From NCBI GenBank assembly GCA_017457465.1, contig JAFTHJ010000253.1:1-40145 (forward strand): DNA of 40,145 nucleotides, written 5' to 3'. Made by a program: the position numbers and the translations under genes. The first letter of the stretch is position 1, and each line of letters starts with the position of its first letter. This DNA comes from Clostridia bacterium. GTDB lineage: Bacteria; Bacillota; Clostridia; Oscillospirales; CAG-272. The notes under the pieces were generated by a model, which saw only the letters and a list, made by a program, of their open reading frames with translations, had not been told where the DNA came from and did no database searches. This document shows, one piece after another, positions 3,728-34,248 of the stretch.

Positions 3728-3729
3728 TA

Positions 3730-4704: not shown

Positions 4705-4719
4705 AACGCTTTACCTCCC

Positions 4720-9473: not shown

Positions 9474-9474
9474 T

Positions 9475-14621: not shown

Positions 14622-15662
14622 TTACGCAAGCTTCGTTGCACCCGATACCGTGCCTTCGCTATGTACTGCGAGAGCAATATGCTTCCAGGTATTGAAGCCT
14701 ACACCGAAACGGCAGTAGCCGTTCCAATAGTAGTTACGAGTATGATCGTCAATATTGGAGCGAATATCGAGGGGAACACGGTTATAGAACATATTGCCGT
14801 AAAGATTCTCGTTTGCCTCGCTCGACATAATCATAAGGCGATCATCGGCGGTTTCCCAGCCGGGAAGGACAACAACGGTCCAATTACCGTACTGAGTGTT
14901 AATATCGTTGTTGTTGCTGCCTACTGTTCTCTCAGAGCCTACAACCTTCTTTACCATAGCCTCAAGCTTAGGACGGTTGCAGGGAACGATGATAATATCA
15001 GCAACGTACTCCATAACTTCGCCGTTTTCGTCCTTGAAGTTGCGGAGCTTGTTTGCGAGCACGCCAAGTGCTTCCTCAAGCTTCTGAGAATCAGAAGCAA
15101 TATCGCCGTAGAAGTAGTTGGACTGCGTGCCCTTCATCTCAGGCTTGTAATACTTGTGCGCGCTGTGGAAAAGGGAAAGACCGTCAGCAGTGGTAAGGTC
15201 AACGGTTGCCTTATTGAAAACGCCCGTGGTCTTAGTGCCGTTGATGAGCGCCCAGGAAGCAAGCTTGTTTCTCGTCTTGTAGTACGCACGCACGAACTTC
15301 TTAGGCTTGGACTTAATATCGGCAGAAATGCCGGATTTCGCATCGTCAGCCATCTCCTTAGTGATGGTAAACTCCTTCATAAAGGCGATATGCTCGATGG
15401 TCTTTTTGAAGGTCATCTCAACGGAATCGTTCTCTGCGCCCTGACCTTCCTTAGCGTGCTGGAAGGTATCAAAATCGGATTCGCCGATGATGGTTTCAGC
15501 GTATCTGTTAGACTTCTCAACGTTAAAGAGAACGTCCACAATACCCTTGTGCTTCTCCTGGGCGTTGGATTCTGCCTCGATGAGCATTTTGATCGGGTGC
15601 TCAAACTTGCCGTACATAGCATCGTTCTTACCCGACATCTTGCTATAAATGAAATTAGACAT
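14622..15662 (-). CDS. major capsid protein (candidate, HK97-fold expected)
   Basis: 346 aa. Follows the scaffold and a small decoration-like gene, and its size and composition are typical. The call rests on gene order. Confidence 0.6.
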   Translation of the reverse strand: MSNFIYSKMSGKNDAMYGKFEHPIKMLIEAESNAQEKHKGIVDVLFNVEKSNRYAETIIGESDFDTFQHAKEGQGAENDSVEMTFKKTIEHIAFMKEFTITKEMADDAKSGISADIKSKPKKFVRAYYKTRNKLASWALINGTKTTGVFNKATVDLTTADGLSLFHSAHKYYKPEMKGTQSNYFYGDIASDSQKLEEALGVLANKLRNFKDENGEVMEYVADIIIVPCNRPKLEAMVKKVVGSERTVGSNNNDINTQYGNWTVVVLPGWETADDRLMIMSSEANENLYGNMFYNRVPLDIRSNIDDHTRNYYWNGYCRFGVGFNTWKHIALAVHSEGTVSGATKLA

Positions 15663-17054: not shown

Positions 17055-17192
17055 TTACTTAGACTTCTTGCCGTTGCGCAGGTCGTTGCCCTTTACTGTG
17101 GTGGACTTGGGAGAATCCTTAACAGTGTTAGGAGCTTTGATTACGCCGCCCTGGTTGGTGGCGTAGCGGTTACCCTTTTTAGTATCCTTCAT
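17055..17192 (-). CDS. small highly basic protein
   Basis: 45 aa: MKDTKKGNRYATNQGGVIKAPNTVKDSPKSTTVKGNDLRNGKKSK. AGGAGG RBS 9 nt upstream. The longer track ORF (to 17294) would run through a terminator hairpin. Confidence 0.4.
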   Translation of the reverse strand: MKDTKKGNRYATNQGGVIKAPNTVKDSPKSTTVKGNDLRNGKKSK

Positions 17193-17231: not shown

Positions 17232-17273
17232 AGAAAAAGAGCCACATACACCTATATCGGTGCAGGTGGCTCT
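17232..17273 (-). terminator. rho-independent terminator after the zinc-ribbon ORF
   Basis: Stem AGAGCCAC (17238-17245) / GTGGCTCT (17266-17273) with extra inner pairs. On the minus strand it is followed by UUUUUC (plus-strand GAAAAA, 17232-17237). Confidence 0.6.
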
Positions 17274-17304
17274 CATCTCATTGGATTTTGGCACGATTTG
17301 TTTG

Positions 17305-17472
17305 CTATTCGCTTTTTACGGTCCAAAGCTTGCCGCATCTCTTGCATTTGAAAGTAAGACCTTCGATCTTGCTCTCTTTCAAAAGACCGACCTGGCGGAC
17401 CTTTTCTTTGCAATCAGGACAAACGATTTTCGTGATCTCCTGTTTCTCCGTTGGAGTAATGGTAATTGGCAT
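17305..17472 (-). CDS. zinc-ribbon protein (Com-like architecture)
   Basis: 55-aa ORF not in the track: MPITITPTEKQEITKIVCPDCKEKVRQVGLLKESKIEGLTFKCKRCGKLWTVKSE. CxxC-x21-CxxC, with an AGGAGGG RBS. Confidence 0.5.
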   Translation of the reverse strand: MPITITPTEKQEITKIVCPDCKEKVRQVGLLKESKIEGLTFKCKRCGKLWTVKSE

Positions 17473-17538: not shown

Positions 17539-20500
17539 TTAAGAGGGTGTTTTTAACATAATTCTGCCGTTTCTTACCTCGAATCCGCACAGGGCGGCAA
17601 GCTCTGCCTTCTGCTGCTTATTCAGTTTACCCATCCTGAGTATGTAACGAAGCAGGAGCTTCTTGGCTCTCTCGGCACTCAATCCGCGCAGATCTCCATC
17701 CTTCAGGGCATAGCCCTTTGCGCATATTAGAAGAAGCTTCTGCTCGCTTGATACGTCAAGCTGGTTGATAGCCGCAACAACCTTTTTCCGTTTACTGCCG
17801 CTTATAGCATTTCCGAGCTTGTCTGTATCTGAGGTCAAGCCCTTTGTAGCAACGTGCAGCATAGCGAGGTTTTCAGCGCCTATAACGGAGGAAATAAGCA
17901 CCGCGTTGCCCCTATCAATACCGAGCGCATCTTCAAGCGCCATATTGTAGTGAAGCTCGTACACGTAGTTTACCGCTTCCGCCTTCATCTCCTCGGAGAG
18001 CTTTTTGTATTTCTCTTTGGTAAAGAGCTTTTCAAGGGAAGCCTGGGAAGCAGAGTAGCTGCCTCTTACGGCTGCCTGTTGTGCCTCGTTCAGCTCGTAC
18101 TCTGCGCCCTCTACCGTTATGGACTTTGGAGCGCTCTTAGGAAGCACTTTGTACCCCTTAGCTGAGAGGGAGTAAAGCTCGTTATGCACGGCTTCGCTCA
18201 TATCCACGCCCATACGCTCATTGTAAAGCAGGCTGAGAATAAAGCTTGCCATCTCCACATCTTCATTCTCGATAGCTTTGTAAAAATCGTTTTTGTAATT
18301 CTTCTCGTAGAAAACATTGTCAATTTTGTACGCGGCTTCCGGGTTGAAGCGTTTTGTCAAACCGTACAGAACGTTATAAACGTTACGCACAGGCAAGCCC
18401 GTAATCTGTCCTACTGCGTAGGAAACCTTTTTAATGCGCGAAGCATAGTCTTGCTGCGTTGCTTTATTCTCGCAGATAAGACCTACAAGATCAACGATGC
18501 TCTTTACGCCGCTTATTAAATCATTAACGGCGGAGTAGGCATAGTTGTCAATATCGTAGCCTTCAGCAAAGGTGGCGTAAATGTCTTTGAAGATAGGCAA
18601 GCCGCCGAAAAGGTTGCCTATTGCATCTACAAGCATCGTCTGCGCTACCGTTTCATCCTCCTTCTGCTCCTTGTCATAAAGCCAGCGGAACAGTTGCGCA
18701 ATACCTGCCATAAATACCGCCGTCAACACAAGCGCCGTTGTAGCCTTGCGGGCATTTCTCTTGGCTACTTTTAGCCTTGCCCTCAGCTCTGCCTTAACAT
18801 CGGGATCTGTTGCTGCTTTGATTTTAGAGTGAAGCACAGAGATTTCACCAAACGCATCAATAACTCTGCCTATAACCTTCATACTATCCGAGGTAAACAT
18901 TGTTACGGTGCGCAGGATCTCGTTGCTCGATCTCATAGCAGCAGAGCGCTCGGTTGCAATAGAGTTTTGCTGGGTTTCCTGAATAACTTTCCTGAGAAGC
19001 TTTCCTGCCTCTATTTTGTTAGCTTCTGTACCCACCTTAGCGCCGCCATTCTTTTCTACCTGGACCTGACAAGCGCCGAATACGCGGCAAACTACAAATC
19101 TATCCATCATACCAATAGGCTGCATAAGCACATCAGAAAATTTACCCACTTTCTGTATAGCTCTGCCTGCCTTGCTACGAGCCTTGCCTTGCTTATCGAG
19201 AACACCCTGTGCCATAGCGGCAGTGTTTTCGTATCTACGAAGCTCTGCGAGGGGGCAGTATTGATCTATTCCCTCAGAGGAGAGGAATACGCCTCGCGTG
19301 ATACTGTCAGCATCCAGGATGCTTGACGAAGCAAAGATAGACGAAAGCTGAGTAAACCATACTTTAGGATTAGCGCCGAGCTGGAATTTTGCATAATTTC
19401 CACGAATAAGCCCCAGCGCTGCCATTCCTTCGCTTGAACCTGCTGGGATACCCTGAATATCAGAGATCAGCTTCATAAAATACTTGTTACCCTTAGCCCA
19501 TACGTTCTCGCTTGCGGTACGCACGCTTATCGGGTGATTTCGGTTGCCCGAGGTATCCATATTGTAAAGGCGGTTAAAGGTTTCTATTGCAGGGGAGAGG
19601 TACGCATACTGACATACCGCGTGAATATGCCGCCTGAATCGTGCATCTGCACTCTCAATAGCGATCTCCTGCTTCGCGCCCTTAACTATATCCTTGTTGA
19701 AAGAGGAATTTGTTACGCGGTCATATTCCGCCTGCGCATCCGAGGTATCAATATTCTGTGCCGTGTATGCACGTCTGATAGGATAGTAATAGTCGGTGCT
19801 GGCGTTGGTAAAGCCGAGCCTCTGCATATCGCGGTCAGCCTTCAGCTTGCGTGCATCCTCGTTGTATCCTTTCTCAAGGATAGCCATATACTGACGGTCC
19901 GCATCGGTGAAGTGCTTTGCGATTTCTGCCTGCTGCGCGGTAATTGCCGCTTCAAGATCCGTTTCGCTGATATGCTCATCGGGCAAGAAGCCAGGCACTC
20001 TCACAACCTTGCCTTCAAGGTTTTTGAACGGGAAGCCGTTTATAGCGATACCCGCCCAGGCGTGCTTACGCTTCATAGTCATATAAAGGTCGATGAGCTG
20101 AATTTTCGGGATCTTCTGCCCTCTGTATTCTATAAGCTCCTCGGAAGCCTTTTCAATGTACTTTTTATTGCTGCGCAAAAACTCATCATATTCGCGCATA
20201 ATACGCATTTCCGCTATCTCGGCATCGGTTGCCGCCTCGCGCAGATCCTCAAACATCTCGGTATAAAATCCGCGCTCGTAGTAATCCATTCTGCGCACAA
20301 GCGTAGCAGGATCGCTGAACATCTCCGCGTACCAAGAGCCTGAGAGCTTTGCGAATAAGCCTACCTTTAAGCCTTCGTTTGCCTGGGCTATGCCTATATA
20401 TCTCTTTGCCTCGGGGAGCGCTTCAATCATTTTGCCGTTGCGGAACACTTTGCCATAATTCTCAACGAATTTCACGAAGTAGGACATAACATCATACATC

Positions 20501-23500
20501 GTAAGTAGCTCCTCTTTGGAGAAGCCCTTTTTACCTTCGGAGAGGGATTCCAGCATATCTGCAACACTCTGCACGTAAAGCCCGGGGTTTTTATCATCGA
20601 CAAACTCAAGCAGCGGGTTGTCTTTGCGATACCACTGCAAAAGCTCGCCCATAATTTTGCGCGTGCCGGATACGTTCAGATTTCCTCTAAACTGTATCTT
20701 AGCAAGCTTTTCTATGGAATTTTTGAAAAGCTCACTGTCAAACTGCGTTGCGTTTGCAAACGTGCCGAGCCTAAGATCTTTCATCTTCTGTGCCTGGCTC
20801 ATAAGCAAACCGAGGATGCGATCCCTGCCTTTGATTCTATCGTGCTCAGCCTTCCAAAATTCTGCTCTTGTGGAGTAGTATTCTATTCTGCCTTCCACAA
20901 GCCTTGAGAACTTGCTTTGCTCGCCCTCAGTTTCAAAGGCTCTCATAATATCAGCTTCAATGCCTGAAACGATTGCAAGCATATCCGCATCGGTTGCTTC
21001 CCAATAAGCAGAGATCCACTTATCTTTTACATCCTCGCGTGCCCTCTCGTACATAGCATCCAGCTCCATAAAGGCTTCTACCGGGTGCATATCTTCAAGC
21101 TCACTCATTCCGGGCATCTCGCGGGCAATATCTACCGCAAACACATCCATAGGAACGCGACTTGTGCCTTTCTTGCCCTTGTATCCCCATCTACCGAGGA
21201 TCTTTTTCAAGCCCGCCTTGTCGGCAATATGGCGTATCTCGGAGAGATATTCAGGGTGAAAAGATATTTTGCCGATATAGGTGCTGAGGTAGGAGAGCCT
21301 TTCCTGCGCTTCCATAACGTCAGGGTTTTCAACCTTTGCCTCCGTAACCATCGTAGCAACAATAAACTCCGCCATATCGTGAGCGAAGGTCTGCCGCGAT
21401 TCCAGGTCAGTGCAATCGTTAAAGCCTTGCCATAGAGCATCTGCCAGCTCCGCCCTCGTCTTTGCAGTGAGGTCCGATGTACCAAACATTCTGCCGATAA
21501 CTTCAAGCGCCTTACCTTTGGAGAACACCTGATAATGCGTATTGTTGGCAATAGTTTTCTTCATCTCGCCTATGGTGAGAGTAGAAGCGCCGGGCTTCCT
21601 CGGTATGCCTCTCTCAAGCACTGCCTCAATATCGAAGCTTGCACCGTCTGCATCCGCGTTCATATCAATATCACCGAAGATAGCATCAAGATCCTCATCA
21701 CCTGTAAGGGCATATCTTGTATCAGGGTTGCTGGAGGGGGCAGTATTGGAGGTAAGCTTTGCCTGCTCGGACCTGAAAATAACAGATTCCGTATCGAGTA
21801 TAAAGCCATCATACTCCGTACCGTTTACCTTGTTGAAAAGCTCTACCGCCTCAACAAGATCGCCTATCGCGGTCAGGGATACATCATAGAGCATAGCAAA
21901 ATCGCTCTTGCCCTCGTACACGCTGCGCAGCACTTCGGCTACATCGTATGTACCGTAGTTTTCAATGCTATAATCCTCGTTTTCCGCCACTGCATTGAGA
22001 AATTTTCTCATCTGCATACGGGAAATTGTCTTTTTCGTAGCAGAGAGGGGATTTGTAATATTGAGATAGTAGCCGCGCACCGTGCCGTAGTGCCGCGCCT
22101 GGTCTGCGCTATTTGTGAAATAAAAGCCCCTGCCGTAGAGATTGGAAGCCTTAGACTTCTTCTTATCGAAGGTGAAGAACTCCTCGGGAGCGCCCTGATA
22201 CATCACCTGAAGCCTGCCCTCGCTATCAAGCTGCTTGGAGGCATCAAAATACTTCCGTTGGTCGCTTGTAAGCTCTGCGCCGGTGCTATCGCTCTCAGGA
22301 AGGGCGTAGCGTATGTCGGGAGAGGCTGAAGGTGTTTTGTTCGATGCAAGCTTTATTTGATTCGCCTCAAACGCTACTATCTCATCTCCCGTAGTGCTCT
22401 GTATAACACCATCGTACCCCCTGCGGCGTAGCTCCTCATTGAATTGCTTTCCTGCACGCTGCATAAAGTATTCAGGAAGATGCTGCTCGATATAGCTATA
22501 TCTTTTGTCTGAAAGATAAGTAATAGCAGCGGAGAGCCTGTATTTTTCTGCCTGTTCCCGCGTTTTGAATCTGCCGCGAGGATAGTAGCTTTCAAAATTG
22601 TGCTCGCCGTATTCCTCCATAGCATCAAGAATACTATCGTACTGCTCCTGAGTGATAGTACCATCTTTCAGGAGATACGAAGCCCACGAAGCTGAGGTAA
22701 TATACTCATCTTTGATAATTTTTTTGATCTCTGATGGTATATCAAGAGCCTCCACGTTGTCAGATACTTTATATCCAAAATATTCTGTATCTCCTTCGTA
22801 AATGCTCTCAACAGTAAGGCGTTCACTGTTGTATATGCTTTCAATTTCATCCGCCAGCTCTATGAAGTTTTTGCTTTGGGAACTTTCTGCATTTCCTTCG
22901 CCGTCAAAGCCTTCCACAACATCTACCGTAAGTGTTTTTGCAATCTCGGGGAACTTCCTTGCCATATTTATTACGAAGCTTGCGAAATCAAAATAAATAT
23001 CGCCGTCTGCAACGCCATCATATTGCCCCATTTCTTCAGAGAAGTTAAATGGGTTTTTGATATTCAAGTAGCATTTGAGCACCCGCCTTCCGTAAGTACC
23101 CGCCTCGTACTCAGAGAACGCAAAGTAGAAGCCCCTGCCATACCAGCCGGCATCGTTTGCTGCGCCTATAAGTTTTTTATCAAACTCATAGAACTCGCCA
23201 CTGTTTGTGCCGTGATATACAGGGAGAAGGCTACCCTCGGGGGATATTTCAGCATATCCATCCTTTTCCACGGCTCTTATTTGGCTTTCGGCAAAAAACT
23301 CTCTCTGCTCGGGGGAGAGGGGGTTGCCTTCGCTATCGGTTTCGGGTAGAGCAAACCTTATATCCCTGCTATATGGGCTAAATCTCTTGCTGAGAGGGAT
23401 AATTTTGCCCGCATCGTCATAGGTGATGGGATCTGCCGATTTTATCTGTTCAGAGTGGAAGGCAACAATTTGTACGCTTTTTTTACCTTCTCCAATAGTA

Positions 23501-26500
23501 TCGGCATCAAACCGGGTATCCTTTATGATTATTCCGTCATACCCTTGCGAAACAAGGCTTTCTTTGTATTTTTTGACAACATCAGCACCATTTTCAAGCC
23601 TCATTCCCAATCCGCCAACGTTTGCATCTTCAGCGGTTTTTCCCGCCAATTTGTATATTTCTGTTTTGAATTGCTCATAGGAATCTGTGAAGATCAAATC
23701 GCCTCGTTTTGCCCGCAAGCTCTCTATCATAACTTTACAAGAAACAAGCTCATCGGCAATTTTCTGTGCTTCCAAAAATGTCTTTTCGTCAACGTTTTGC
23801 GAATTTTTAGGCGCTGTTTTTCCGTTCGTTCTGATGTATTCGCTTACCGACCACCTTGCAAGCAAGCCAAGCTCATTAAGTTCCTCGTACAAAGATTTAT
23901 ACTTTTCTTCGGCATCCGCAATTTCTTCATCGACTTTTTTTATGGCTTCGGAATCCATTTCTGTGGTAGTAAACACTTTCGGGTTTTCAATCTTCAGCCA
24001 GCTTTCATATACTTGTGGATTGTTTTCATCAGTTCCCCAGGTTTCGCTTACCCAATTTTCCGCGCCTTTCCTGGTAGCGCCAAACCAAAAACCGATTTTA
24101 GATTCTATGCCACCATAAAGCCCGGATTTTCCTTCGTCAAAAACAGTGAATGAATTGTGTGAGCCGTGATACCCCTTAACTGTATATCCTGCCTTCTTTG
24201 CCGCTTCATCGACCATAGCCTGCACAGTATCCATATCTCCGCTTTCAACGGCGGCAAGATATGCCTCATCTGTCAGCGCAAAACGCTTTTTCTGAGGTTT
24301 TTTTGAAGAATTTTCGCCAGGGGTATTGCTTTTTTTCTCAGAATGAGTTATAATAAGCTTGTTCTCAGCATCTCCTAACGGAGCCGGGGAGGCGGATTCG
24401 TCCGTCATACTCTGTTGAGGACTTTTTTCTTTTTCGATAAACTTTATCTCATAAAGAAACTGTTTTGATCCCTTATCCCTCACCACCACTTCTATATCAA
24501 AGCCATCATAAGAGCCTTTGAAGCGGTGCATAGCGACAACACCTTTTTTTGCCTCATTCTCCAAGCCGTGTATCTCCGTATTAGATCCTTCGTAGGTGCA
24601 GCTTCTAAGTATCTCGGCAAAATGCGGGATAGCTTTAATTCTCGCATTTACCTCGCGCATATTTCTGCCCTTGTTGGAGAATATGTTTTTATTCTGAGTG
24701 AATTTATCCGTGAGGATTCTAATGCTTTTTCCGCCCGCATCAAGTCTGATGCCGAGCGTGCCAAGCTTAACAAGGTCATTTTTGAGCCTTTCAGCTTTAC
24801 CTTTTGATAAGGCAAACCTTGTATCCGTATCAACATCCGTGTTTGTTACAATGGGTGCTTCCTCGTCATTATCGCCTGTAACGTGCATATAATCGGTTTC
24901 TGTGTTCGTTACGGGCATTTTTTTCGCTCCTGCGCCCTCTAACGCAATCGAAAGAGCGTTGTTACCCTGGTTGCGCTCCGCAAGGCTCTCAAAGAGCGCT
25001 TTGTACTGTCTTACGAATTTACGAGCCTGCGCCGACAAGCCCTGAACAGAGGAATATTCCCGGGCGGATTTACGGAAGAAGGAAAGCACCTTATCTGCGA
25101 AAGAAGGCTCTTTTGAGAGAATATAAGCCCAGGCATCCGCGCTTCTGAAAACTTCCTCTGCGCCCGCTGCGGCAACCTCCTCCTCGGAGATAGCCTGAGC
25201 TACGGAAGAATCCGTGCCAAGCTTCTTATAGAACTTCTTGTATCTCTTGCGCACTTCCTGCGCTTTTTCGGGGTTGCTTCTCTCCAGGAGATCTCTTGCC
25301 TCTCTAAAGAGCTGCAAAGCGCGTTTATCGCCGTCAGCAAAAAGCTTATGGAACATCTCGTGCCCGAGGATAACTTCATACGTTCTCGCTTCGGAGTTGT
25401 TAGGATTTACATAGATAGTATTGCCGCTTATAGCGCCATCTCCAAACGCCCTCTCGGCATCGAAGATAACGTTTAAGCCCGATTTTGCCGCAACCTTTGC
25501 GAACACAAGAGTTTCAGCATCAGCAAGACCGTGCGCACGCGCCTGCCTTACCGTCATTCTGATAGCCGCCTTGTTAGGCTCGCTCAAAGAATTGTAATCG
25601 GGGATATTCTCAGCCGCATACGCATCTATCTCGGTTGTTTCTCTTGCAAGGTTGGTTTCCTCGGTGAACTGCATTGATTTTGCGGTGGTAGTCTGCCCGG
25701 AAGTCCAAAACCTTTTGAGGACCTGGTTTACATCCTGCACCGAGAGGGCGCGGCTAATATTTCCTCCGTCATAGTCATAGAGGCGGTATGTATCGCCTTC
25801 CTTGAAGATAGCCATATTAACTGAGCCGTCCTCGCTGGTATAGCGGTAAACACCGTCCTGCATATTCTTGCGCAGCAGGTGAGGCAGGGGCTTTGCACTC
25901 TCTGCGCCCTGCTCAAGAGCGCGGCGCATACGTTTGGATTGTTCTGCGAACTCGGATATACCGCCGTTAGCATTAAATTCTGCTACTCTCGTTCTCAGCT
26001 CGTCTATCGTTACCTTAGACCAATCCTCGATACCGAGAGCTTGACCGAGCGCCTGCATTTCTTCAGGCTTGCCCTTTTCAATAAGGCGGTTGAGATCTGC
26101 CGTATTCGCAAGATTTTCACCGTTAAGCATAGCCTCAGCCATTCTGCGCGTATCCATCATAATACCGCCTGTTGCCTCTGCTACTGCAAGCGTTGCAAGG
26201 GTGGAGTTTTCGGAGAGGGCTTTTCTGAGCGACTTGGCAAAGGTTTTTGCCTCTGCATCCGTCAGCGTGCCAGCCTTAGCCTTCTCTACAAGGGAAGCAT
26301 CAATGCCTGAAAGAATTTGCTCGGCAGTTACTCTGATAGGCTTGCCGTTGGCATCCGTCATACCGAAAGCAGCATATCTCTGCGCTGCGTTCTCCGCATT
26401 GAATACAAGCCCTCTTGCGCTTCTCTCGATATAGGGATGAAGGTGAGCTATAACGCTCGTTCTCTTGAGCTTACCCAGGTACATCAAGTCTTTTGCCTTG

Positions 26501-27678
26501 AAAGTAACGTTGCCTGCCTTTACGCGCTCAAGTAGCTCCTCAGTGGTAGCAATACCATTATTCTTTTTAAGGCTCTCTGTGAGCTTATTATAGGTATCCT
26601 GCGCCGATTGGAAAGCCTCTATATTCGTATCGTTCTTGCCCTCTGCATCAGCAAGCGCTCTGCCTGCTTCAATAACGCCAGCGTATGTACCACTCTCGGC
26701 GGCTTTTTTGCCCGAGAAATAGTTTACGGTGGTATTCACGCCTGCGTTAATGCCGATAGACGATCCCGACATTACCATACCCGAAAGACCGCCAACCATA
26801 GCGGCATAGAAGATCTCCTGTGCGGAGGCATTTTCTGCATCCGGGTTGTAGGTCATTCTCTGATATACAGGGGAAAGGAACTCCGCAAGACCTTCCTCAA
26901 AGGCTTCCGTTACAAAGTCCTCACCTATCTGCTTAAAGATAGCTTTTGCGCCCGTCTTTGCCACCGTTTCTGCGGTTTCTTTTGCGGCGGTTTTTCCAAG
27001 AGAGCTGATAATTCTACCCGTACCTTTTCCGATACCGGCAGTAGCAAATTCAATGCCCGCTTCGGTGATGCCCGAGAGAGCGCCGTATCCAAACTCTTTG
27101 CCCGTAAGCTGCCCTGTTTCTCTGTATGCTTCCTTTGTTGCATTACCAGCCGCGCCAAAGCCCGCGATACCTGCGGAAATACTGCTGATAATGAGCTTTG
27201 CGCCCACTCCCGACAGAGATCCGCCTGAGAAATAGATAATAGCCGCACCTGCCGCAGCGCCAGCAAGTGCAGGAAGGCTCGTACCGATACCCCCCGCTAC
27301 ATCACCCGCCACCTGCCAGCTTGAAGAAGGGTTAAACCACTCGTCTGCGTGATTATAATTCACCCAATCGCTTGCAAACTGCTGCTCAGCCCAATCGTCA
27401 GCACCAAAGAGCTTAGCTATACCGCCTGCGGTATAATCCCATATACCCTCTATGCCCGAAAGGAAGCCAAGACCTATTTTTTCGCCAAGATAGCCAAGAC
27501 CGCCGAAGAAGCCTCCGCTATTCTGTTCTGCCAGCTCTTGCGCCCTTTTTGCTTCTGCCTCTTTTGCCGCTTGCGCTCTTGCGTAAACGTTTGAGGCATT
27601 CATTTTTCCGAGTGTACCCAGCCCCGTAGGAGAGCTGAGCACACTATTTTTTTGTCCTAATGTGGTTATATTTGCCAT
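17539..27678 (-). CDS. giant polyvalent virion-associated protein (zincin metallopeptidase plus three ART-like modules plus large uncharacterised C-terminal half)
   Basis: Uninterrupted 3,379-codon ORF. Gly/Ala-rich hydrophobic N-terminus. ILGHEMFHKL (HExxH at aa 773-777, nt 25348-25362). Three paralogous modules carry YHG[ST]/YQG ... G(R)GFYF[AT]. Located between the portal-proximal gene and the scaffold. Confidence 0.85.
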   Translation of the reverse strand: MANITTLGQKNSVLSSPTGLGTLGKMNASNVYARAQAAKEAEAKRAQELAEQNSGGFFGGLGYLGEKIGLGFLSGIEGIWDYTAGGIAKLFGADDWAEQQFASDWVNYNHADEWFNPSSSWQVAGDVAGGIGTSLPALAGAAAGAAIIYFSGGSLSGVGAKLIISSISAGIAGFGAAGNATKEAYRETGQLTGKEFGYGALSGITEAGIEFATAGIGKGTGRIISSLGKTAAKETAETVAKTGAKAIFKQIGEDFVTEAFEEGLAEFLSPVYQRMTYNPDAENASAQEIFYAAMVGGLSGMVMSGSSIGINAGVNTTVNYFSGKKAAESGTYAGVIEAGRALADAEGKNDTNIEAFQSAQDTYNKLTESLKKNNGIATTEELLERVKAGNVTFKAKDLMYLGKLKRTSVIAHLHPYIERSARGLVFNAENAAQRYAAFGMTDANGKPIRVTAEQILSGIDASLVEKAKAGTLTDAEAKTFAKSLRKALSENSTLATLAVAEATGGIMMDTRRMAEAMLNGENLANTADLNRLIEKGKPEEMQALGQALGIEDWSKVTIDELRTRVAEFNANGGISEFAEQSKRMRRALEQGAESAKPLPHLLRKNMQDGVYRYTSEDGSVNMAIFKEGDTYRLYDYDGGNISRALSVQDVNQVLKRFWTSGQTTTAKSMQFTEETNLARETTEIDAYAAENIPDYNSLSEPNKAAIRMTVRQARAHGLADAETLVFAKVAAKSGLNVIFDAERAFGDGAISGNTIYVNPNNSEARTYEVILGHEMFHKLFADGDKRALQLFREARDLLERSNPEKAQEVRKRYKKFYKKLGTDSSVAQAISEEEVAAAGAEEVFRSADAWAYILSKEPSFADKVLSFFRKSAREYSSVQGLSAQARKFVRQYKALFESLAERNQGNNALSIALEGAGAKKMPVTNTETDYMHVTGDNDEEAPIVTNTDVDTDTRFALSKGKAERLKNDLVKLGTLGIRLDAGGKSIRILTDKFTQNKNIFSNKGRNMREVNARIKAIPHFAEILRSCTYEGSNTEIHGLENEAKKGVVAMHRFKGSYDGFDIEVVVRDKGSKQFLYEIKFIEKEKSPQQSMTDESASPAPLGDAENKLIITHSEKKSNTPGENSSKKPQKKRFALTDEAYLAAVESGDMDTVQAMVDEAAKKAGYTVKGYHGSHNSFTVFDEGKSGLYGGIESKIGFWFGATRKGAENWVSETWGTDENNPQVYESWLKIENPKVFTTTEMDSEAIKKVDEEIADAEEKYKSLYEELNELGLLARWSVSEYIRTNGKTAPKNSQNVDEKTFLEAQKIADELVSCKVMIESLRAKRGDLIFTDSYEQFKTEIYKLAGKTAEDANVGGLGMRLENGADVVKKYKESLVSQGYDGIIIKDTRFDADTIGEGKKSVQIVAFHSEQIKSADPITYDDAGKIIPLSKRFSPYSRDIRFALPETDSEGNPLSPEQREFFAESQIRAVEKDGYAEISPEGSLLPVYHGTNSGEFYEFDKKLIGAANDAGWYGRGFYFAFSEYEAGTYGRRVLKCYLNIKNPFNFSEEMGQYDGVADGDIYFDFASFVINMARKFPEIAKTLTVDVVEGFDGEGNAESSQSKNFIELADEIESIYNSERLTVESIYEGDTEYFGYKVSDNVEALDIPSEIKKIIKDEYITSASWASYLLKDGTITQEQYDSILDAMEEYGEHNFESYYPRGRFKTREQAEKYRLSAAITYLSDKRYSYIEQHLPEYFMQRAGKQFNEELRRRGYDGVIQSTTGDEIVAFEANQIKLASNKTPSASPDIRYALPESDSTGAELTSDQRKYFDASKQLDSEGRLQVMYQGAPEEFFTFDKKKSKASNLYGRGFYFTNSADQARHYGTVRGYYLNITNPLSATKKTISRMQMRKFLNAVAENEDYSIENYGTYDVAEVLRSVYEGKSDFAMLYDVSLTAIGDLVEAVELFNKVNGTEYDGFILDTESVIFRSEQAKLTSNTAPSSNPDTRYALTGDEDLDAIFGDIDMNADADGASFDIEAVLERGIPRKPGASTLTIGEMKKTIANNTHYQVFSKGKALEVIGRMFGTSDLTAKTRAELADALWQGFNDCTDLESRQTFAHDMAEFIVATMVTEAKVENPDVMEAQERLSYLSTYIGKISFHPEYLSEIRHIADKAGLKKILGRWGYKGKKGTSRVPMDVFAVDIAREMPGMSELEDMHPVEAFMELDAMYERAREDVKDKWISAYWEATDADMLAIVSGIEADIMRAFETEGEQSKFSRLVEGRIEYYSTRAEFWKAEHDRIKGRDRILGLLMSQAQKMKDLRLGTFANATQFDSELFKNSIEKLAKIQFRGNLNVSGTRKIMGELLQWYRKDNPLLEFVDDKNPGLYVQSVADMLESLSEGKKGFSKEELLTMYDVMSYFVKFVENYGKVFRNGKMIEALPEAKRYIGIAQANEGLKVGLFAKLSGSWYAEMFSDPATLVRRMDYYERGFYTEMFEDLREAATDAEIAEMRIMREYDEFLRSNKKYIEKASEELIEYRGQKIPKIQLIDLYMTMKRKHAWAGIAINGFPFKNLEGKVVRVPGFLPDEHISETDLEAAITAQQAEIAKHFTDADRQYMAILEKGYNEDARKLKADRDMQRLGFTNASTDYYYPIRRAYTAQNIDTSDAQAEYDRVTNSSFNKDIVKGAKQEIAIESADARFRRHIHAVCQYAYLSPAIETFNRLYNMDTSGNRNHPISVRTASENVWAKGNKYFMKLISDIQGIPAGSSEGMAALGLIRGNYAKFQLGANPKVWFTQLSSIFASSSILDADSITRGVFLSSEGIDQYCPLAELRRYENTAAMAQGVLDKQGKARSKAGRAIQKVGKFSDVLMQPIGMMDRFVVCRVFGACQVQVEKNGGAKVGTEANKIEAGKLLRKVIQETQQNSIATERSAAMRSSNEILRTVTMFTSDSMKVIGRVIDAFGEISVLHSKIKAATDPDVKAELRARLKVAKRNARKATTALVLTAVFMAGIAQLFRWLYDKEQKEDETVAQTMLVDAIGNLFGGLPIFKDIYATFAEGYDIDNYAYSAVNDLISGVKSIVDLVGLICENKATQQDYASRIKKVSYAVGQITGLPVRNVYNVLYGLTKRFNPEAAYKIDNVFYEKNYKNDFYKAIENEDVEMASFILSLLYNERMGVDMSEAVHNELYSLSAKGYKVLPKSAPKSITVEGAEYELNEAQQAAVRGSYSASQASLEKLFTKEKYKKLSEEMKAEAVNYVYELHYNMALEDALGIDRGNAVLISSVIGAENLAMLHVATKGLTSDTDKLGNAISGSKRKKVVAAINQLDVSSEQKLLLICAKGYALKDGDLRGLSAERAKKLLLRYILRMGKLNKQQKAELAALCGFEVRNGRIMLKTPS

Positions 27679-27693
27679 AATAACCTCCGTTTG

Positions 27694-30402
27694 TTATTTG
27701 GCATATTTTTCGTACATAGCCTTCAAGTATGCCTGGTATGTTCCGTATTTCTGCTTGTCGCTGTTGTTTCCTCGCGCAAATTCAGTTTTCGTTCTAATGC
27801 CCGGGTTGTATTTCGCAACATCTTCATAAGTTAATGTGCCCGAATCAGCCTTTTGCGCAATCTCACTGTCGGACGGATAGGTTACCGCCGTTTTTCCCTT
27901 TATTTTCGATGAGGGGGCGCTTTCAAGGAACGCCGCTACTGCTTTGTCTATTGTGCCCTGATCGTTATCGGATTTGAGTTTCACCCATCCGTTTTTCTTT
28001 CCGTACAGATAAAGATTGCCGTTATAGCAGACAATCTTTCCGGGCTTATCATCACTGCTGATGGATGTATCCGCGCCAACGCCAAAGAACCAGCCGCTGC
28101 CTTCTCCGTCAATAGAAGGTGTTTTGCTTGCGCTACCCGTAGCAAGTTTATTAAGAGCATTTATAGTAGCCGAATCCGTAACGGTTGCTCCGCAAAGCAA
28201 ATCAAACTCCGTATCTTTATTTCTCGAAGTAGAACCGAGGGTAATATCAACATCGTCATTTTCTCTGCCTGTTCCAAGACCTTCGATAAACCAGCCTCCC
28301 GAAACAGTATTGCTTGATGCCGCACCGATAGATCTCATCTTCTCCACGTACTGCGAAGCAGTGAGCTTGCCCGATTTGTACTGATACGTTACGCCCTGGG
28401 AGCTATTATTGAGTAATGCGGTGATCTCATCGTAAGTTGCCTTGTCGATGTTTCCATCACGATAAAGAGCATCTGCATCCGCAAAAGCGCCTGCGATATT
28501 ATCAACGTTACCCGAGTTAAGCATATCAACAACGCCGTTATAAACGTTCCTGTTCTGCTCAGCCTTAGCCTTTGCGGCATCGTCTGCGGTAAGAACATCG
28601 TTTTTAGCCATATCGTCATAATCTTCCTGCGTGTAGTAGGAAGGATCGTACTGCGAATTAGCAACAACATCCTTGTAATTAACGCTGGAATCGGTTGCCT
28701 TTGCTTCCTCCTTCTTCTGCTCGTAGGCTGCCGCGCTATCAATAAGCGCCTGCTTTTGCTCAGGAGAAAGACCATAGGTATCCGCAAGGCTTGCAAGCTG
28801 ATCCGCGTTATACTCGCCCGTATTAGCGCCACCGAGCAAAACGCCAAACATTTCATCCGCGTAAGCCTTTTCCGCCTTAGCCTCAGCTTCTGCTTCATCA
28901 GCCTTTTTCTGCTGATATACGGCAATATCCTTTTCGTTCTCGGCAAGCCCCGTTTTATACGAAATCTCAGCCTCGTTCCTCTCGCTCGCCGCGTTATAAT
29001 TTGCATCCGCAATTCTTTCATCGGCTTCCTTGTTGGCATCGGCAACACTTGCGTTATAGCTACTGTCAGCAGCGTAGATATTGCCCGCATAGGTCTGATC
29101 CGCCTCGTACTTGGCATCTCTATTTGCGCTATTCGCAGCATAGTCTGCCGCCGCTTTATCCTGATTTGCCTTAGTGAGATTTTCGTTATAGGTCGTATTG
29201 ATAGCATACACCGTATCAGCGTACTTGCTTTCGGCATTAGCTACATTCTCGGCATAGGTTGCATCGGCTTCAAGCTTTTTCTCATCCTCGGCATAACGCG
29301 CAGCTCTCTTAGCCGCTTCCGCATCAGCATTTACCGCCTGGACCTCTCCTCGTTGCGCTGCATAAGCCTGCGCATTAAGGTAATCACTATAACCGCCTCC
29401 TGTAAGCCCCATAGAAGCAAGAGCCTCGGCATTTGCACCATAGGTTGATTTGTTTTGCTCGTAAGCGCTACTTGCATCTACAATGCCTCGCTGCCTTGCA
29501 ATATCAGCCTGTTCGTACTCGCGTACTCTTGCGGCTTCCGCTGCGGCATATACCGCCGCTTTTGTTTCTTCCGAGAGGGAAAGCAGGATCTGCTTTGTTT
29601 CCTCCGCATACTGCATACCCGATTCTTTTGCAGCATTGATGCTTGCAAGAAGCCGATCGTACTGCTCCTGGTTAAATCCAAGAGCTGCCATAAGCGCCTG
29701 ATCTGCGTATGTATATGCGTTATTCTTGATGGTTTCCGCTGCGGCGTAGTCGGATTCTTTTTGCGTTCCTGCCGCCGCAATAGCATCGTTTCTGATGCCG
29801 TTTATCTCGTCAACGAGTTGCTTGTTTTGCGCATCAATTCCCGCAATAGCATCCGTGTAAATATCCTTCAGCTCGTCAGGTACGCCCTGGAGGTATTCAA
29901 GGTAACTATCGGTTGGAGCATTTGCCGTTGCATCTCCGCCAGCAGTTGTATTGGAAGGCGGGCTTGCTTCGGGCGCGGGTGTCGCAGGGGTGGGCGTAGA
30001 AGTGGTTTCCGTAGCAGGTGTATTTGCTTCCGTATTTGCGTTATAGGAAAGATCCACCTTTTGCGGTGCAGGTGCGCTTACAGGCGTTATATTCGCTCCG
30101 TATGAGTTGCCGAAAGTGGAGTTGTTCACGTTAGGGTTGCCAATAACTACGCCCTCATCTGTTACCCCTCCGTAGCTTCCGCCTCCAGCCGCAGCGCCTA
30201 CCTGGACTACATTAGCGGCATAGGAAAGGGTGTTAGGTCCTACAAAATTACTGCCCGTAGGAGAAACGGAAGGAATCGTTACCTGCGAGCCGCCTACAAG
30301 ATTTCCACCCTGGAATGAATACGAGGGAGGCGTTACGGGGGAAGGTCCACCGCCGCCATCATAGAGGCTCACTTGCGCGAGATTGTTTTTATACGTTAGC
30401 AC
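27694..30402 (-). CDS. low-complexity virion protein (internal/ejection protein candidate)
   Basis: 902 aa, GTG start with a GGGAGG RBS, overlapping the portal stop. Gly/Pro/Thr-rich N-terminus and a long Ala/Asp/Asn/Tyr degenerate repeat region (ADATYAENVANAESKYADTVYAINTTYNEN...). Confidence 0.6.
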   Translation of the reverse strand: MLTYKNNLAQVSLYDGGGGPSPVTPPSYSFQGGNLVGGSQVTIPSVSPTGSNFVGPNTLSYAANVVQVGAAAGGGSYGGVTDEGVVIGNPNVNNSTFGNSYGANITPVSAPAPQKVDLSYNANTEANTPATETTSTPTPATPAPEASPPSNTTAGGDATANAPTDSYLEYLQGVPDELKDIYTDAIAGIDAQNKQLVDEINGIRNDAIAAAGTQKESDYAAAETIKNNAYTYADQALMAALGFNQEQYDRLLASINAAKESGMQYAEETKQILLSLSEETKAAVYAAAEAARVREYEQADIARQRGIVDASSAYEQNKSTYGANAEALASMGLTGGGYSDYLNAQAYAAQRGEVQAVNADAEAAKRAARYAEDEKKLEADATYAENVANAESKYADTVYAINTTYNENLTKANQDKAAADYAANSANRDAKYEADQTYAGNIYAADSSYNASVADANKEADERIADANYNAASERNEAEISYKTGLAENEKDIAVYQQKKADEAEAEAKAEKAYADEMFGVLLGGANTGEYNADQLASLADTYGLSPEQKQALIDSAAAYEQKKEEAKATDSSVNYKDVVANSQYDPSYYTQEDYDDMAKNDVLTADDAAKAKAEQNRNVYNGVVDMLNSGNVDNIAGAFADADALYRDGNIDKATYDEITALLNNSSQGVTYQYKSGKLTASQYVEKMRSIGAASSNTVSGGWFIEGLGTGRENDDVDITLGSTSRNKDTEFDLLCGATVTDSATINALNKLATGSASKTPSIDGEGSGWFFGVGADTSISSDDKPGKIVCYNGNLYLYGKKNGWVKLKSDNDQGTIDKAVAAFLESAPSSKIKGKTAVTYPSDSEIAQKADSGTLTYEDVAKYNPGIRTKTEFARGNNSDKQKYGTYQAYLKAMYEKYAK

Positions 30403-32362
30403 TGTTCGTACCTCCCTTTAATGCTTTGATTTGCTGGAGAAGCTTATTCTCGTAACCGGCTCTGTTCTTCACATCCTCGGTAAGCCTTGCAATCTTATCC
30501 TGGTAGCCTGCAATCTCGTTCTGACGGGCAATTTCCGCCTTGATGCGCTCAACGTTATCGTTAGCCCAGGGATAGTGCGCCTTCTCCATATTCTGCCAAA
30601 AGATGAGCTGGGTTTGAGGCAGCGCGGGATCTCCGTATGCTCCGCTTTGGAAGTTCTGCCTATTCTCCTGCCATAAAAGCTCTCTTGATTTCTCAATATC
30701 TATGGTCGCATCGGTGCGGAACAGATACTGATCGTTGTAGTAATACTCGCCAGCCTCATCCCTCTCGATGAAGTCATAGCGGTTAAAGAGATAATTTTGC
30801 AGGTTGCCCTGCGCATCTCTGTATGTAGCGGGGCGCGGCTCGTCTGCGTATGCAAGGTAGTATTGGAAGATGATCTGATCTATCTCGGCATACGCGGCAT
30901 TTTTCATCTGCCGCTTGGAATCCAAACGACCTGCCGCCTGCTGAATTTGGAGCTGCTTAGCTCTACCACTCTGTGCGGAGCTATCATACTGCCCCTGGTA
31001 ACTGTCAGTGATGCCGAGGATGCGCTTTGCGTGGTCGTAAATACGATCTGCTTCCGCAATATCCTTTGAAATATCCACCGACAGATCAAGTCTGCCGTAC
31101 TGCGCGTAGGTGTTAGGGTTAGCCTTAAATACCTTTTGGAAGATGGAATTATCCATATCTCCCGCAAAGTCCTCGGGTACGATAGGATAAACACCGCTTC
31201 CGAGGGTTTTCTGAAGGATGCGGCTCTCAATCTTGTTTACCGCCTGCTGCTGAGGTCTTATAAACTCGCAATCGCTCTGACCGAGCAGCGAATCCTCCTC
31301 AGAGGTATTCTTACGAATAACAACCGGGAGAATGTTAGGCGTATAGAACGGCAGGCGCGTTTTCTCCATCTTAGGCACTTGCACGTCAACCATAAGGGGC
31401 GCGAAGCCACCGCCTGCATCTTCAAGAGCCATACTGCCATCAACCTCAAGCACCTGCTGCTTCTGCGTTTCAAAAACAATTTGACCGTCCTTAATAACCT
31501 CGCTCATAGCGGGAATGATATTGCCATCGGATTGCACAATATCCCTCTCCAGCTCCTCATAATCCTCGTTCTGAAGCTCGTAGAAGCTATCCTTTGCGTT
31601 CTCGCAGGTACAAAGTTCCTCGCGCTTGCCGCAGTGCTTACAGATGCGGCGCTTGCGTGCGTAGTAGTCCTCAATATCAAGCAGCTCGGTTTCGCCACTC
31701 CATACGTACTCGCAAACCTTATCCTCTGCATTTTTGTAGTAGCACACGTAGAGGGTTGCGGTCTTATCATCTGCGTTTTCCTCGCTCTCGGCATCGTCTG
31801 CAACCTCAAGAGATACGCCGTACTTGCGCACTATATCCTCTTTGGTCGTTTCAAAGGTTATGAAGCAATACTCCATATCCTTGACCTCGTAAATATTAGG
31901 CTGCCCTACAAAGCGCGTAGGCGAGAGGCAGGAGATCTTTACATCTCCTACGGTGTTGTGCGTTCTGATGGAATTATCCCACTCAATGAGCCATACAGAG
32001 CCGCCATAAATGTAGGAAAGGCGCTCATCCATATCGTTCATCTTCTCAAATGCCAGCTCATCTCTCTTGTTGCGCAAGAGGGTTTCTACGCTCTTTGCGT
32101 TGCGCTCGTTGCGCTCGCTCTGCATCTTAGGAGAAGTGCAAGGGTTAGGGATATACGTTGTTACCTGGCTTTCAATAAGCTCGTAGGTGATATTCCATAC
32201 GTGAGAGGCTTCTACATTAGAGCCGTCAATCTTGGTGCTTCCTTTGTACTGCTCAGCGTGCTGCGCAAGCTTAGCAAACAACGCCTCAAGCGAGGATCGG
32301 GCTTCTTGGTAGAGGTCCTGGAAAAAGGAGAGCTTTGTGCCTCCGTTTAATTCGATTCTCAT
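30389..32362 (-). CDS. portal protein (candidate)
   Basis: 657 aa. Start overlaps the TerL stop. Size and position are typical. Contains an inserted C-x2-C-x6-C-T-C knuckle. Confidence 0.65.
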   Translation of the reverse strand: MRIELNGGTKLSFFQDLYQEARSSLEALFAKLAQHAEQYKGSTKIDGSNVEASHVWNITYELIESQVTTYIPNPCTSPKMQSERNERNAKSVETLLRNKRDELAFEKMNDMDERLSYIYGGSVWLIEWDNSIRTHNTVGDVKISCLSPTRFVGQPNIYEVKDMEYCFITFETTKEDIVRKYGVSLEVADDAESEENADDKTATLYVCYYKNAEDKVCEYVWSGETELLDIEDYYARKRRICKHCGKREELCTCENAKDSFYELQNEDYEELERDIVQSDGNIIPAMSEVIKDGQIVFETQKQQVLEVDGSMALEDAGGGFAPLMVDVQVPKMEKTRLPFYTPNILPVVIRKNTSEEDSLLGQSDCEFIRPQQQAVNKIESRILQKTLGSGVYPIVPEDFAGDMDNSIFQKVFKANPNTYAQYGRLDLSVDISKDIAEADRIYDHAKRILGITDSYQGQYDSSAQSGRAKQLQIQQAAGRLDSKRQMKNAAYAEIDQIIFQYYLAYADEPRPATYRDAQGNLQNYLFNRYDFIERDEAGEYYYNDQYLFRTDATIDIEKSRELLWQENRQNFQSGAYGDPALPQTQLIFWQNMEKAHYPWANDNVERIKAEIARQNEIAGYQDKIARLTEDVKNRAGYENKLLQQIKALKGGTNSANV

Positions 32363-33729: not shown

Positions 33730-34226
33730 TAGTTGCTTTCCTCGTCTATCTCATCAGAGCCGTAGTCAACACTGAAGGTGATGGTAGTATCGTTGGTTGT
33801 CTTGTCGCTCATACCGTGATCGTTGGAGAGCACAAACTTCGTGAAGTTGCTATCGTAGTGCTTCATTATGCCGCCTGCCTTGCCGATGCCGAGCTGCATA
33901 TTTTTTGCTATCGCGTATGCGGCTGAAAAACGGGGGTGCTTCTCGCACCAATTCAGAAGCGTTTTGTGCGTTACGCCAATGCTTGCCGCAAACAATTCAA
34001 AGGTGGGAAATTTAGGCGGCATCATAATAGGCTCTTCACTTTTGAGAGTTCCATCTTTGTAATAACTTCGCTTATAAACGTACTCAGGGGGGCGCTCCTG
34101 AAAGTAGGCTACAAGCATATCTGCATACTTCTCGCAGTATTTCTCAGCGATCTTGTTTCCAAGCTTAAACCTGGTGCTTTCGCCGGTAGTGTTTCCTTTT
34201 GGAAACTGTCCGTTGTTTTCGCTCAT
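33729..34226 (-). CDS. terS: terminase small subunit
   Basis: 165 aa from ATG 34226 (MSENNGQF..., AAGGAAAGGAG RBS). HTH-like FELFAASIGVTHKTLLNWCEKHPRFSAAYAIAK typical of TerS. The track's upstream start at 34256 would overlap the terminator U-tract. Confidence 0.7.
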   Translation of the reverse strand: MSENNGQFPKGNTTGESTRFKLGNKIAEKYCEKYADMLVAYFQERPPEYVYKRSYYKDGTLKSEEPIMMPPKFPTFELFAASIGVTHKTLLNWCEKHPRFSAAYAIAKNMQLGIGKAGGIMKHYDSNFTKFVLSNDHGMSDKTTNDTTITFSVDYGSDEIDEESN

Positions 34227-34248
34227 TTGCTTTGATCTCCTTTCCTTG

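Follow-up and report, generated by a model that had tools for sequence, protein, structure and literature searches.

In the 40,145-nucleotide stretch analyzed here (the window; contig JAFTHJ010000253.1 of the Clostridia bacterium assembly GCA_017457465.1, positions 1 to 40,145), one giant open reading frame (ORF) lies on the minus strand at 17539..27678. It starts with ATG and encodes 3379 amino acids (aa) plus a stop codon. We consider it probable that the product is a delivered polyvalent protein, consisting of a frame and a cassette, from a gut-Clostridia phage that has no recognizable long-tail genes. An N-terminal module and a zincin form one side of the frame and a large C-terminal module the other; between them lie a small domain and three ART modules, and each border of this cassette carries the short motif R-[FY]-A-L. 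The initial annotation, made from the sequence, had called this a polyvalent protein, and the domains now detected agree with it: a gluzincin, a PBECR3-like domain and three ART-PolyVal modules, encoded beside terminase and portal genes. All features of the giant gene given below are on the minus strand, and residue numbers refer to its product.

The comparison with relatives, for which homology searches of the giant protein were run by halves, carries most of the argument. A profile of the C-terminal 1,200 residues matched 750 database proteins. Most of the best 120 were full-length giants (2,500-3,700 aa). Many came from contigs of 40-47 kb, and some C-module matches lay on 130-394 kb contigs of Clostridia metagenome-assembled genomes (MAGs), which indicates prophages. 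With a profile of aa 1-1140 (N-module, zincin, and small domain), 1,750 representative clusters of 1.84 billion were found, mostly metagenomic and mostly giants of 2,200-4,268 aa. Eleven segments of the protein were mapped onto 176 relatives: the C-module sub-parts were present in 128-135, the N-module parts in 124-129 (both together in 124), and the zincin in 123, whereas the ART1, ART2, and small-domain types of the window occurred in only 11-17. Phages whose C-module is 96-100% identical to that of the window bear other cassettes, with total lengths of 3,181-3,471 aa. There are also minimal versions. For example, in the relative P0047 the N-module (47-655) is fused straight to the C-module, in a neighborhood like that of the window (TerS, TerL, portal, a 775-aa protein, the giant, and capsid genes), and P0057 consists of N(46-279) and C. 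Across the family, the cassette repertoire comprises ART-PolyVal, PBECR3, PBECR5, LPD3, LPD23, MuF_C, a GNAT acetyltransferase, and DUF3990. As judged from these alignments, the family is a constant frame (N-module and zincin; C-module) around a hypervariable effector cassette. The suggestion that the domain combination may be new holds in a narrow sense: the exact set is unique to the window strain, though only because the middle cassette is hypervariable. A candidate for a naturally separate C-module gene, P0006, was uninformative, as it begins 63 nt from a contig end. Searches by tblastn with the C-terminal half and with the relative P0010 returned uncultured human-faecal phage fragments and one unrelated methyltransferase, and no cultured relative by sequence.

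The N-module (aa 46-660) has no family in Pfam, PHROGs, or NCBIfam and is strongly conserved, with many invariant glycine, tryptophan, and acidic residues. Its first part (aa 46-330; 26689..27543), delimited by hydropathy and alignment A2, is the Gly/Ala-rich hydrophobic N-terminus that had been described earlier: Kyte-Doolittle hydropathy peaks at aa 130-180 and 292-310, and the G+A+S fraction is 0.37-0.48. In alignment A2 the invariant residues of this part are E77, G78, D81, W114, E206, E210, E258, E261, and E262, and the AlphaFold2 (AF2) model shows helices at low confidence. The second part (aa 331-660; 25699..26688) is helical with a small beta-sheet, at a predicted confidence score (pLDDT) of about 73-90. 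The C-module (aa 1988-3379; 17542..21717) is all-alpha in its AF2 model (pLDDT 70) and divides into C1 (1990-2200), C2 (2250-2580), C3 (2581-2970), and C4 (2971-3379). A C-terminal half of about 1,390 aa with one clear transmembrane (TM)-like helix and no known motif had been proposed, and this is what we found: a hydrophobic TM-like helix at aa 2979-2997 (18688..18744; Kyte-Doolittle 1.83), in a region conserved in alignment A1, and no match of the module in Pfam or NCBIfam. That half had also been thought possibly new. It is indeed uncharacterized, but it has been seen before, as phrog_22978 (E 5e-37), in the 750 proteins mentioned above, and in 71 significant matches among BFVD models. Most of these last are chunks from the C-terminal end of long viral proteins (suffix _2 or _3), many with an ART-PolyVal, LPD, MuF_C, or "nuclease" annotation, and one is annotated as a structural protein of a Flavobacterium podophage (E 1e-6, with a weak TM-score of 0.26).

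Foldseek searches of the PDB with both AF2 models returned generic helical proteins only, all at E > 0.1, and no fold match for either model; whole models of 1,140-1,200 residues were used, which probably reduced sensitivity for the zincin and BECR domains. Both models are of medium to low confidence, the N-terminal one having a pLDDT of 60. PDB sequence searches with profiles A1 and A2, the ART region, and the neighboring 865-, 902-, and 304-aa proteins yielded only IrrE, at the HExxH motif, with E 0.13. The role proposed for the frame is argued from hydrophobicity, conservation, and analogy alone.

The predicted gluzincin metallopeptidase domain occupies aa 680-905 (24964..25641), as delimited by HExxH conservation and AF2 secondary structure. 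Its zinc-binding and catalytic motif, HEMFH, is at aa 773-777 (25348..25362) by sequence and alignment, and HExxH is kept in 224 of 226 homologous zincin segments. Among 84 sequences (60% non-redundant), conservation reaches 97% for H773, 100% for E774 and H777, 97% for Y813, and 96% for E834. The AF2 model has a helix, three strands (736-757), the HExxH helix (767-781), and a helix with the conserved Glu (824-843), in the order that Iyer and colleagues gave for the zincin layout (PMC5512222). No match of the giant protein to Pfam MPTase-PolyVal (PF18818) was found even at E<=10, and this model is missing from the precomputed Pfam domains of all of the roughly 170 relatives listed. The zincin has only weak matches, to IrrE, M13, and DUF5700, to which the relative P0018 adds a weak one to DUF6782. 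Of the earlier proposal, a zincin HEMFH in a context resembling the polyvalent-protein metallopeptidase, the motif stands and gains a conserved Glu, while the link to MPTase-PolyVal finds no match in Pfam. The domain forms a distinct gluzincin clade, with a conserved HExxH...E pattern, beyond the Pfam MPTase-PolyVal model.

The cassette opens with a small domain at aa 955-1131 (24286..24816). The initial annotation had marked a domain of about 180 aa here (aa 954-1131), and it is separate, as proposed. It gives no direct Pfam match, PBECR3 (PF18812) included. A profile of its homologues does match segments that Pfam calls PBECR3, chiefly in their C-terminal half: those of P0064 and P0015 at E about 1e-9 (in a small database), and that of P0031. 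The domain sits where relatives have PBECR3, MuF_C, or LPD3, and aligns by position with the PBECR3 of P0018. Its AF2 model, at low pLDDT, shows helices followed by four strands, which is compatible with the BECR topology. With moderate confidence, we regard it as a divergent PBECR3-like (RNase-fold) domain.

Three ART modules follow. The whole protein scores 157.2 bits against ART-PolyVal (PF18760), where the cut-off is 31.2, and the modules score 58.9 (ART1), 72.8 (ART2), and 58.0 bits (ART3). ART1 (aa 1133-1440; 23359..24282; Pfam aa ~1164-1416, E 1.2e-15) has a helical insert; ART2 (aa 1442-1789; 22312..23355; Pfam aa ~1481-1567 and a second piece, E 6.2e-20) has a large one; ART3 spans aa 1791-1987 (21718..22308; Pfam 1818-1980, E 2.3e-15) and is of the type most common beside the C-module in the family. 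The active site of ART-PolyVal has been defined as an H-Y-D triad (PMC5512222). We placed these positions (strands 1, 2, and 5) by aligning the three modules with 379 ART segments of the family. Three tandem ART-like modules had been claimed, and all three are Pfam matches, but the defining triad is found in ART2 only (H1489-Y1518-D1756); ART1 has H1171-W1198-D1381 and ART3 has Q1828-Y1853-D1957. Phe or Trp at the Tyr position and the Q-Y-D type both recur across the 379 segments, and they are therefore maintained variants and not random decay.

The junction motif opens each cassette module and the C-module. When the pattern R-[FY]-[AS]-[LIVM] was counted in the giant protein, five sites were found where 0.57 were expected. 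All five are module borders, and no site falls within the N-module or the C-module. RFAL occurs between the zincin and the small domain (aa 954-957; 24808..24819; in coil, with pLDDT below 50), between the small domain and ART1 (aa 1132-1135; 24274..24285), and between ART1 and ART2 (aa 1441-1444; 23347..23358); RYAL occurs between ART2 and ART3 (aa 1790-1793; 22300..22311) and between ART3 and the C-module (aa 1988-1991; 21706..21717). In the first 60 relatives together with the window protein there are 62 sites, compared with 11 +/- 3 in shuffled sequences, and 152 complete zincin-bearing frames average 2.93 per protein in the middle and 0.01 elsewhere. The flanks are Ser/Thr/Asn/Pro-rich upstream, with Asp at -2, and downstream there is Pro, then Glu, then acidic residues. 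A repeat at the DNA level was considered as the origin and rejected: the codons differ among the five sites, so the motif is conserved as protein. Homology breakpoints between near-identical phage variants coincide with it. At the border between cassette and C-module, relatives have RYAL (32), RHAL (28), or, more rarely, QYAL or KFAL, which reduces the core to [FYH]-A-L with acidic residues behind it. No such junction motif turned up when the main text of Iyer et al. (PMC5512222) was searched by term, and a literature search for it returned nothing relevant.

Tentatively, R-[FY]-A-L, or more broadly [FYH]-A-L with acidic residues, could be the recognition and cleavage site of the gluzincin in the same chain. 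The proposed course of events would be as follows. The giant protein would be made late, with the 902-aa protein encoded directly upstream, and a few copies would be enclosed in the procapsid. At infection it would leave through the portal and tail, ahead of or together with the DNA, as is thought for the virion RNA polymerase of N4 and for phi24B gp47. The hydrophobic N-module, perhaps with the C-module helix, would engage the cytoplasmic membrane. The zincin would then cut its own chain at the R-[FY]-A-L junctions into about six fragments (aa 1-953, 954-1131, 1132-1440, 1441-1789, 1790-1987, and 1988-3379). The freed ART and RNase-like domains would modify host targets, so that defense is blunted or the cell is taken over. 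Over time, exchange of whole modules at the junctions would give the lineage a fast-changing effector set. A true polyprotein strategy, in which a membrane-anchoring N-fragment with the protease, about four free effectors, and a 155-kDa C-fragment arise after entry, is possible, and we would not rate it higher than that.

Polyvalent proteins as a kind are known. Iyer, Burroughs, Anand, de Souza and Aravind (2017) collected more than 9,900 of them, including giant prophage proteins with up to 12 ARTs, and predicted that metallopeptidases (MPTases) process them into units (PMC5512222). The window protein resembles theirs in joining unrelated effectors (a zincin, a BECR-fold RNase-like domain, and multiple ART-PolyVal modules) in one giant chain, in a gene that adjoins portal and terminase genes, in the hypervariability of the domain combinations, and in the processing by an MPTase that was predicted there. 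It differs in that its effectors have no MuF, portal, or N4-type RNA polymerase as fusion partner; they are set between two conserved, partly hydrophobic frame modules, which are outside Pfam, NCBIfam, and annotated PHROG families. It also differs in having a zincin outside Pfam MPTase-PolyVal and a junction motif at every module border.

Several delivered phage proteins offer further comparison. The N4 virion RNA polymerase gp50 (3,500 aa) is capsid cargo of few copies that is ejected into the host (PMC13434306); it carries an MPTase in its C-terminal region and is packaged uncleaved (PMC5512222). The window protein is of similar size and also has a predicted metallopeptidase, but its middle consists of ART and RNase-like effectors with no RNA polymerase, its host is of the Gram-positive type (Clostridia), and phmmer and hmmsearch found no similarity to gp50 (negative scores). 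The 2,811-aa polyvalent protein gp47 of phi24B, a short-tailed, temperate phage, is abundant in virions by mass spectrometry, invisible in cryo-EM, and a proposed ejection protein (bioRxiv 10.64898/2026.04.10.717836). It is likewise a giant polyvalent protein, but with the domains LPD5, LPD1, LPD38, and MuF_C, in a gene that closes the tail-gene block; homology to the window protein is not detectable, and R-[FY]-A-L sites are absent. In Clostridium clostridioforme LM41, the prophages phi1 and phi4 (about 41 kb) have an LPD3-like 8-kb ORF that takes up about 20% of the genome, and podovirus-like particles are released (PMC11318856). This too is a giant ORF in a temperate phage of gut Clostridia, in an arrangement that resembles P0121 in the related locus L008, but it lies at the 3' end of the prophage and was mentioned and not dissected there, and we liken it to ours by description, not by sequence.

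T4 Alt and the MuF-fused toxins (SPP1 gp7 / Mu gpF) are effectors that the head carries and that enter the cell along with the DNA, as is proposed for the window protein, and the gene slot that follows the portal is the MuF slot. T4 Alt is an R-S-E ART, in contrast to the H-Y-D type of the window. Neither the giant nor the 902-aa protein has a Pfam match to MuF (PF04233), and scores against SPP1 gp7 and Mu gpF are about 0 bits for the 902-aa protein and for profiles A1 and A2. Likewise, the giant has no significant PDB sequence or Foldseek match to podovirus ejection proteins of the T7 gp14-16 or P22 gp7/gp20/gp16 type. A functional analogy to these ejection proteins is possible.

The strongest competitor to a delivered protein with a cleavable cassette is an ejection or conduit protein that works in one piece, as a Gram-positive analogue of T7 gp15/gp16 or P22 gp7/gp20/gp16. 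Here the motif would be a flexible hinge or a conserved element that opens each module, and the zincin would act on the cell wall or on host proteins. We think this unlikely, though deserving of attention, given the conserved hydrophobic helices at both ends and the large, all-alpha, very widely conserved C-module. It is also favored by phi24B, for which the authors propose that their metallopeptidase degrades peptidoglycan (bioRxiv 10.64898/2026.04.10.717836). Set against it is the placement of the motif in predicted-disordered Ser/Thr/Pro-rich linkers outside the folded cores, together with the lack of a PDB structural match to solved ejection proteins. Moreover, the HExxH...E enzymes known so far are mostly proteases with protein substrates. 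Several other observations weigh against delivery followed by cleavage. The strict motif is missing in 17 of the 152 zincin-bearing frames, which also suits a one-piece protein, as does the packaging of N4 virion RNA polymerase unprocessed despite its own MPTase (PMC5512222). Conversely, the motif is present without a detected zincin in P0047 (1 site) and P0299 (5 sites), and P0014 has the zincin and no motif. The zincin itself has no significant Foldseek match (whole-chain model), so that the motif and the order of secondary-structure elements are the basis for its fold. ART1 and ART3 may be inactive, since the canonical triad is missing. In a lineage close to the window (L001/L002; protein identity 92-97%), the giant gene is broken at two places yet persists. 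In Clostridia MAGs, relatives of the zincin, PBECR3/LPD, and C1/C2 parts are also encoded by stand-alone genes in the chromosome, with housekeeping genes around them. Head packaging, ejection, and junction cleavage are themselves inferred.

The stand-alone genes show that a virion is not required by these domains, and they are one reason to consider that the giant acts outside the virion, as a toxin, superinfection-exclusion, or defense factor in the producing cell or lysogen, with the late operon serving for timing only. Some family members lie at a prophage end beside host genes (L008; PMC11318856), and polyvalent proteins might also target incoming elements, as Iyer and colleagues noted (PMC5512222). 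A non-virion role is nonetheless improbable in view of the conserved position between portal and capsid genes in an operon coupled by ribosome-binding sites, the cost of a quarter of a roughly 42-kb genome, and the presence of phi24B gp47 in virions. A tape-measure or tail-fibre protein with incidental enzymatic domains is far less likely again. Tape-measure proteins are long and helical, with Gly-rich hydrophobic stretches and sometimes peptidase domains, and a small ORF at 5083-5778 has a marginal tape-measure PHROG match (E 8e-4). At about 0.15 nm per residue, however, 3,379 aa would measure out a tail of ~500 nm, and the gene lies between portal and capsid genes, not with tail-tube genes on one side and baseplate genes on the other. 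Genes for a tail tube, chaperone, or sheath were not detected, and searches of Pfam, PHROGs, and NCBIfam matched the giant to no tape-measure or fibre family. The stand-alone relatives themselves are P0014 (L011 10001-15874) and P0018 (L012 10001-13933), of 1,310-1,957 aa, from the same zincin clade and with C-parts like window aa 1976-2580. Their neighbors include dnaX, recR, spo0A, tsaD, and a DnaB loader, with no phage or conjugation genes within 10 kb.

That the giant ORF is an assembly chimera or conceals frameshifts has next to no probability. The translation contains zero internal stops, and the chance of 3,380 stop-free codons is ~e^-160 when 3 of 64 codons are stops; the ORF is therefore no product of chance. 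A ribosome-binding site, GGAGG (27684..27688), was read from the sequence 5 nt upstream of the ATG, and the 902-aa gene ends at 27694, 15 nt ahead of that ATG. The uninterrupted 10,140-nt frame, a quarter of the window, is thus as first described. An independent assembly of another run (SRR12529369), the Logan contig SRR12529369_206503 (L009), aligns without gaps to 15,127 nt of the window, has 19 mismatches (99.87% nucleotide identity), and carries the same 3379-aa ORF. More than 100 full-length relatives of 2,500-3,700 aa are found in other assemblies, and the family architecture is co-linear. All 19 differences from L009 fall inside the giant gene and are clustered (14 in 67 nt, 4 in 35 nt, and 1 alone), with clusters at window ~26920-26990 (codons ~230-252) and ~18055-18090 (codons ~3197-3208). 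They look like short recombination or gene-conversion patches, not scattered point mutations.

What speaks for hidden frameshifts is the close lineage L001/L002, with a TAG and a homopolymer 1 nt shorter in the giant gene. The first break in L001 is a TAG in place of CAG at codon 356 (L001 7932-7934). The second is a run of six A residues (L001 9985-9995; same site in L002) where the window has seven, in the small domain at codons 1043-1045 (24544..24550). This A6 allele was found in two independent assemblies. It creates GCA_AAA_AAG_G, a classical A_AAA_AAG -1 slippery heptamer, and a -1 slip would recover the frame of the window. The lineage is also without ART1 and ART2. Pseudogenization, a programmed frameshift, or phase variation are possible explanations of the split gene. 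Recoding of the TAG was rejected as unsupported: TAG ends other L001 genes and no suppressor tRNA was found in the window. The coding strand of the giant gene has eight A7 runs (codons 9, 919, 1043, 1115, 1125, 1246, 1399, and 1652), five of them in the cassette at codons 1043-1652; a rough base-composition estimate gives ~3 expected.

The giant gene is located in the head-gene block of a phage, which agrees with the initial annotation. On the minus strand, the small terminase TerS (33729-34256), the large terminase TerL (32359-33729), the portal (30389-32362), the 902-aa protein, and the giant ORF are followed by 55-, 45-, 310-, and 137-aa ORFs, of which the 310-aa one is a putative scaffold gene, and a major-capsid-like 346-aa protein (14622-15662). 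Then come the family-less 304- and 865-aa proteins, a tail-fibre protein (9851-11068), an Ig-like 370-aa protein, and a reverse transcriptase, all on the same strand. This slot had been described as the one where podoviruses encode internal or ejected proteins, which did not hold: the interval between portal and scaffold is classically that of MuF/SPP1-gp7, not the site of T7- or P22-type ejection-protein genes. Family searches detected no tail-tube, sheath, tail chaperone, or credible tape-measure gene in the window, which makes a short-tailed virion plausible. This absence and a possibly related published prophage hint at podovirus morphology. The closest terminase (54% identity) belongs to an uncultured human-faecal phage, and a nucleotide search against cultured phages gave no match for the window. 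The Clostridia host assignment comes from the source names of the MAG matches.

The likely partner of the giant is the 902-aa protein encoded immediately 5' of it (27694..30402, minus strand, GTG start). It is very acidic (net charge ~-50) and rich in Ala, Tyr, and Asn. Its N-terminus is disordered and Gly/Ser/Pro/Thr-rich, its long helical repeats are rich in Ala, Tyr, Asn, and Glu, and Pfam, NCBIfam, and PDB sequence searches gave no family match. It shares homologous blocks, in a mosaic fashion, with the gene directly 5' of the giant in L001 (806 aa), L007 (775 aa), and L008 (734 aa). L001 and L007 preserve the synteny of the window around the giant. In L008, where the gene order differs, the pair lies at a prophage end beside host genes, and the 28 kb examined contained no match to any of seven other structural proteins of the window; the two genes therefore appear to move as a unit.

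Set beside earlier sources, three elements appear to be new: effectors placed between two family-less frame modules, a zincin clade outside Pfam, and the border motif. The kind of protein is already known, and it is the frame and the junction motif that appear undescribed. Polyvalent proteins are the supposed injected first strike of phages and conjugative elements at the defenses of the host, a view in which delivery and activation are still conjecture. The junction motif is a concrete candidate for the MPTase processing sites that have long been predicted, and one that can be tested cheaply; the main value of this analysis is that the processing hypothesis becomes directly testable. If the cleavage-site reading is true, it would be the first defined processing code for polyvalent proteins, and effector modules would be traded between phages as units flanked by cleavage sites. 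The conserved N- and C-modules would then be an unrecognized delivery frame in phages of Gram-positive gut bacteria. The family also provides a catalogue of naturally exchangeable effector modules (ART, PBECR, GNAT, and LPDs). Its apparent hosts are Clostridia, in which phage entry biology is little known, and a possibly related prophage pair, phi1 and phi4 of C. clostridioforme LM41, is available in a cultured strain.

Other features of the window were recorded as well. The two tiny genes after the giant, each with its own Shine-Dalgarno sequence, encode a 55-aa protein with two Cys-x-x-Cys pairs (zinc-ribbon-like; 17305-17472, minus strand) and a 45-aa Lys-rich basic protein (17055-17192, minus strand). 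Genes of equal size follow the giant in L001, L007, L009, and L010, and a hairpin with a T-run lies between the two at ~17250-17290. The window also holds a complete diversity-generating retroelement: a reverse transcriptase (6550-7623, minus strand; phrog_1423, E 4e-72), a 122-nt template repeat (7752-7873), and a variable repeat (8391-8512) in the C-terminus of the 370-aa Ig/Hoc-like protein (8379-9491, minus strand). All 16 mismatches between the repeats are at template adenines, and parts of such an element are also present in L007 (bAvd) and L008 (RVT_1). At the low-coordinate end, a HAD-family hydrolase gene (409-1020, plus strand) lies near a full-length IS-type transposase gene (1138-2181, minus strand; phrog_4646, E 1.6e-131). 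GC content falls to ~0.40 at roughly 2000-5000, which may mark an insertion or a phage edge. At the high-coordinate end there is a DNA methyltransferase-like gene (39351-40106, minus strand; phrog_23072, E 2.5e-34).

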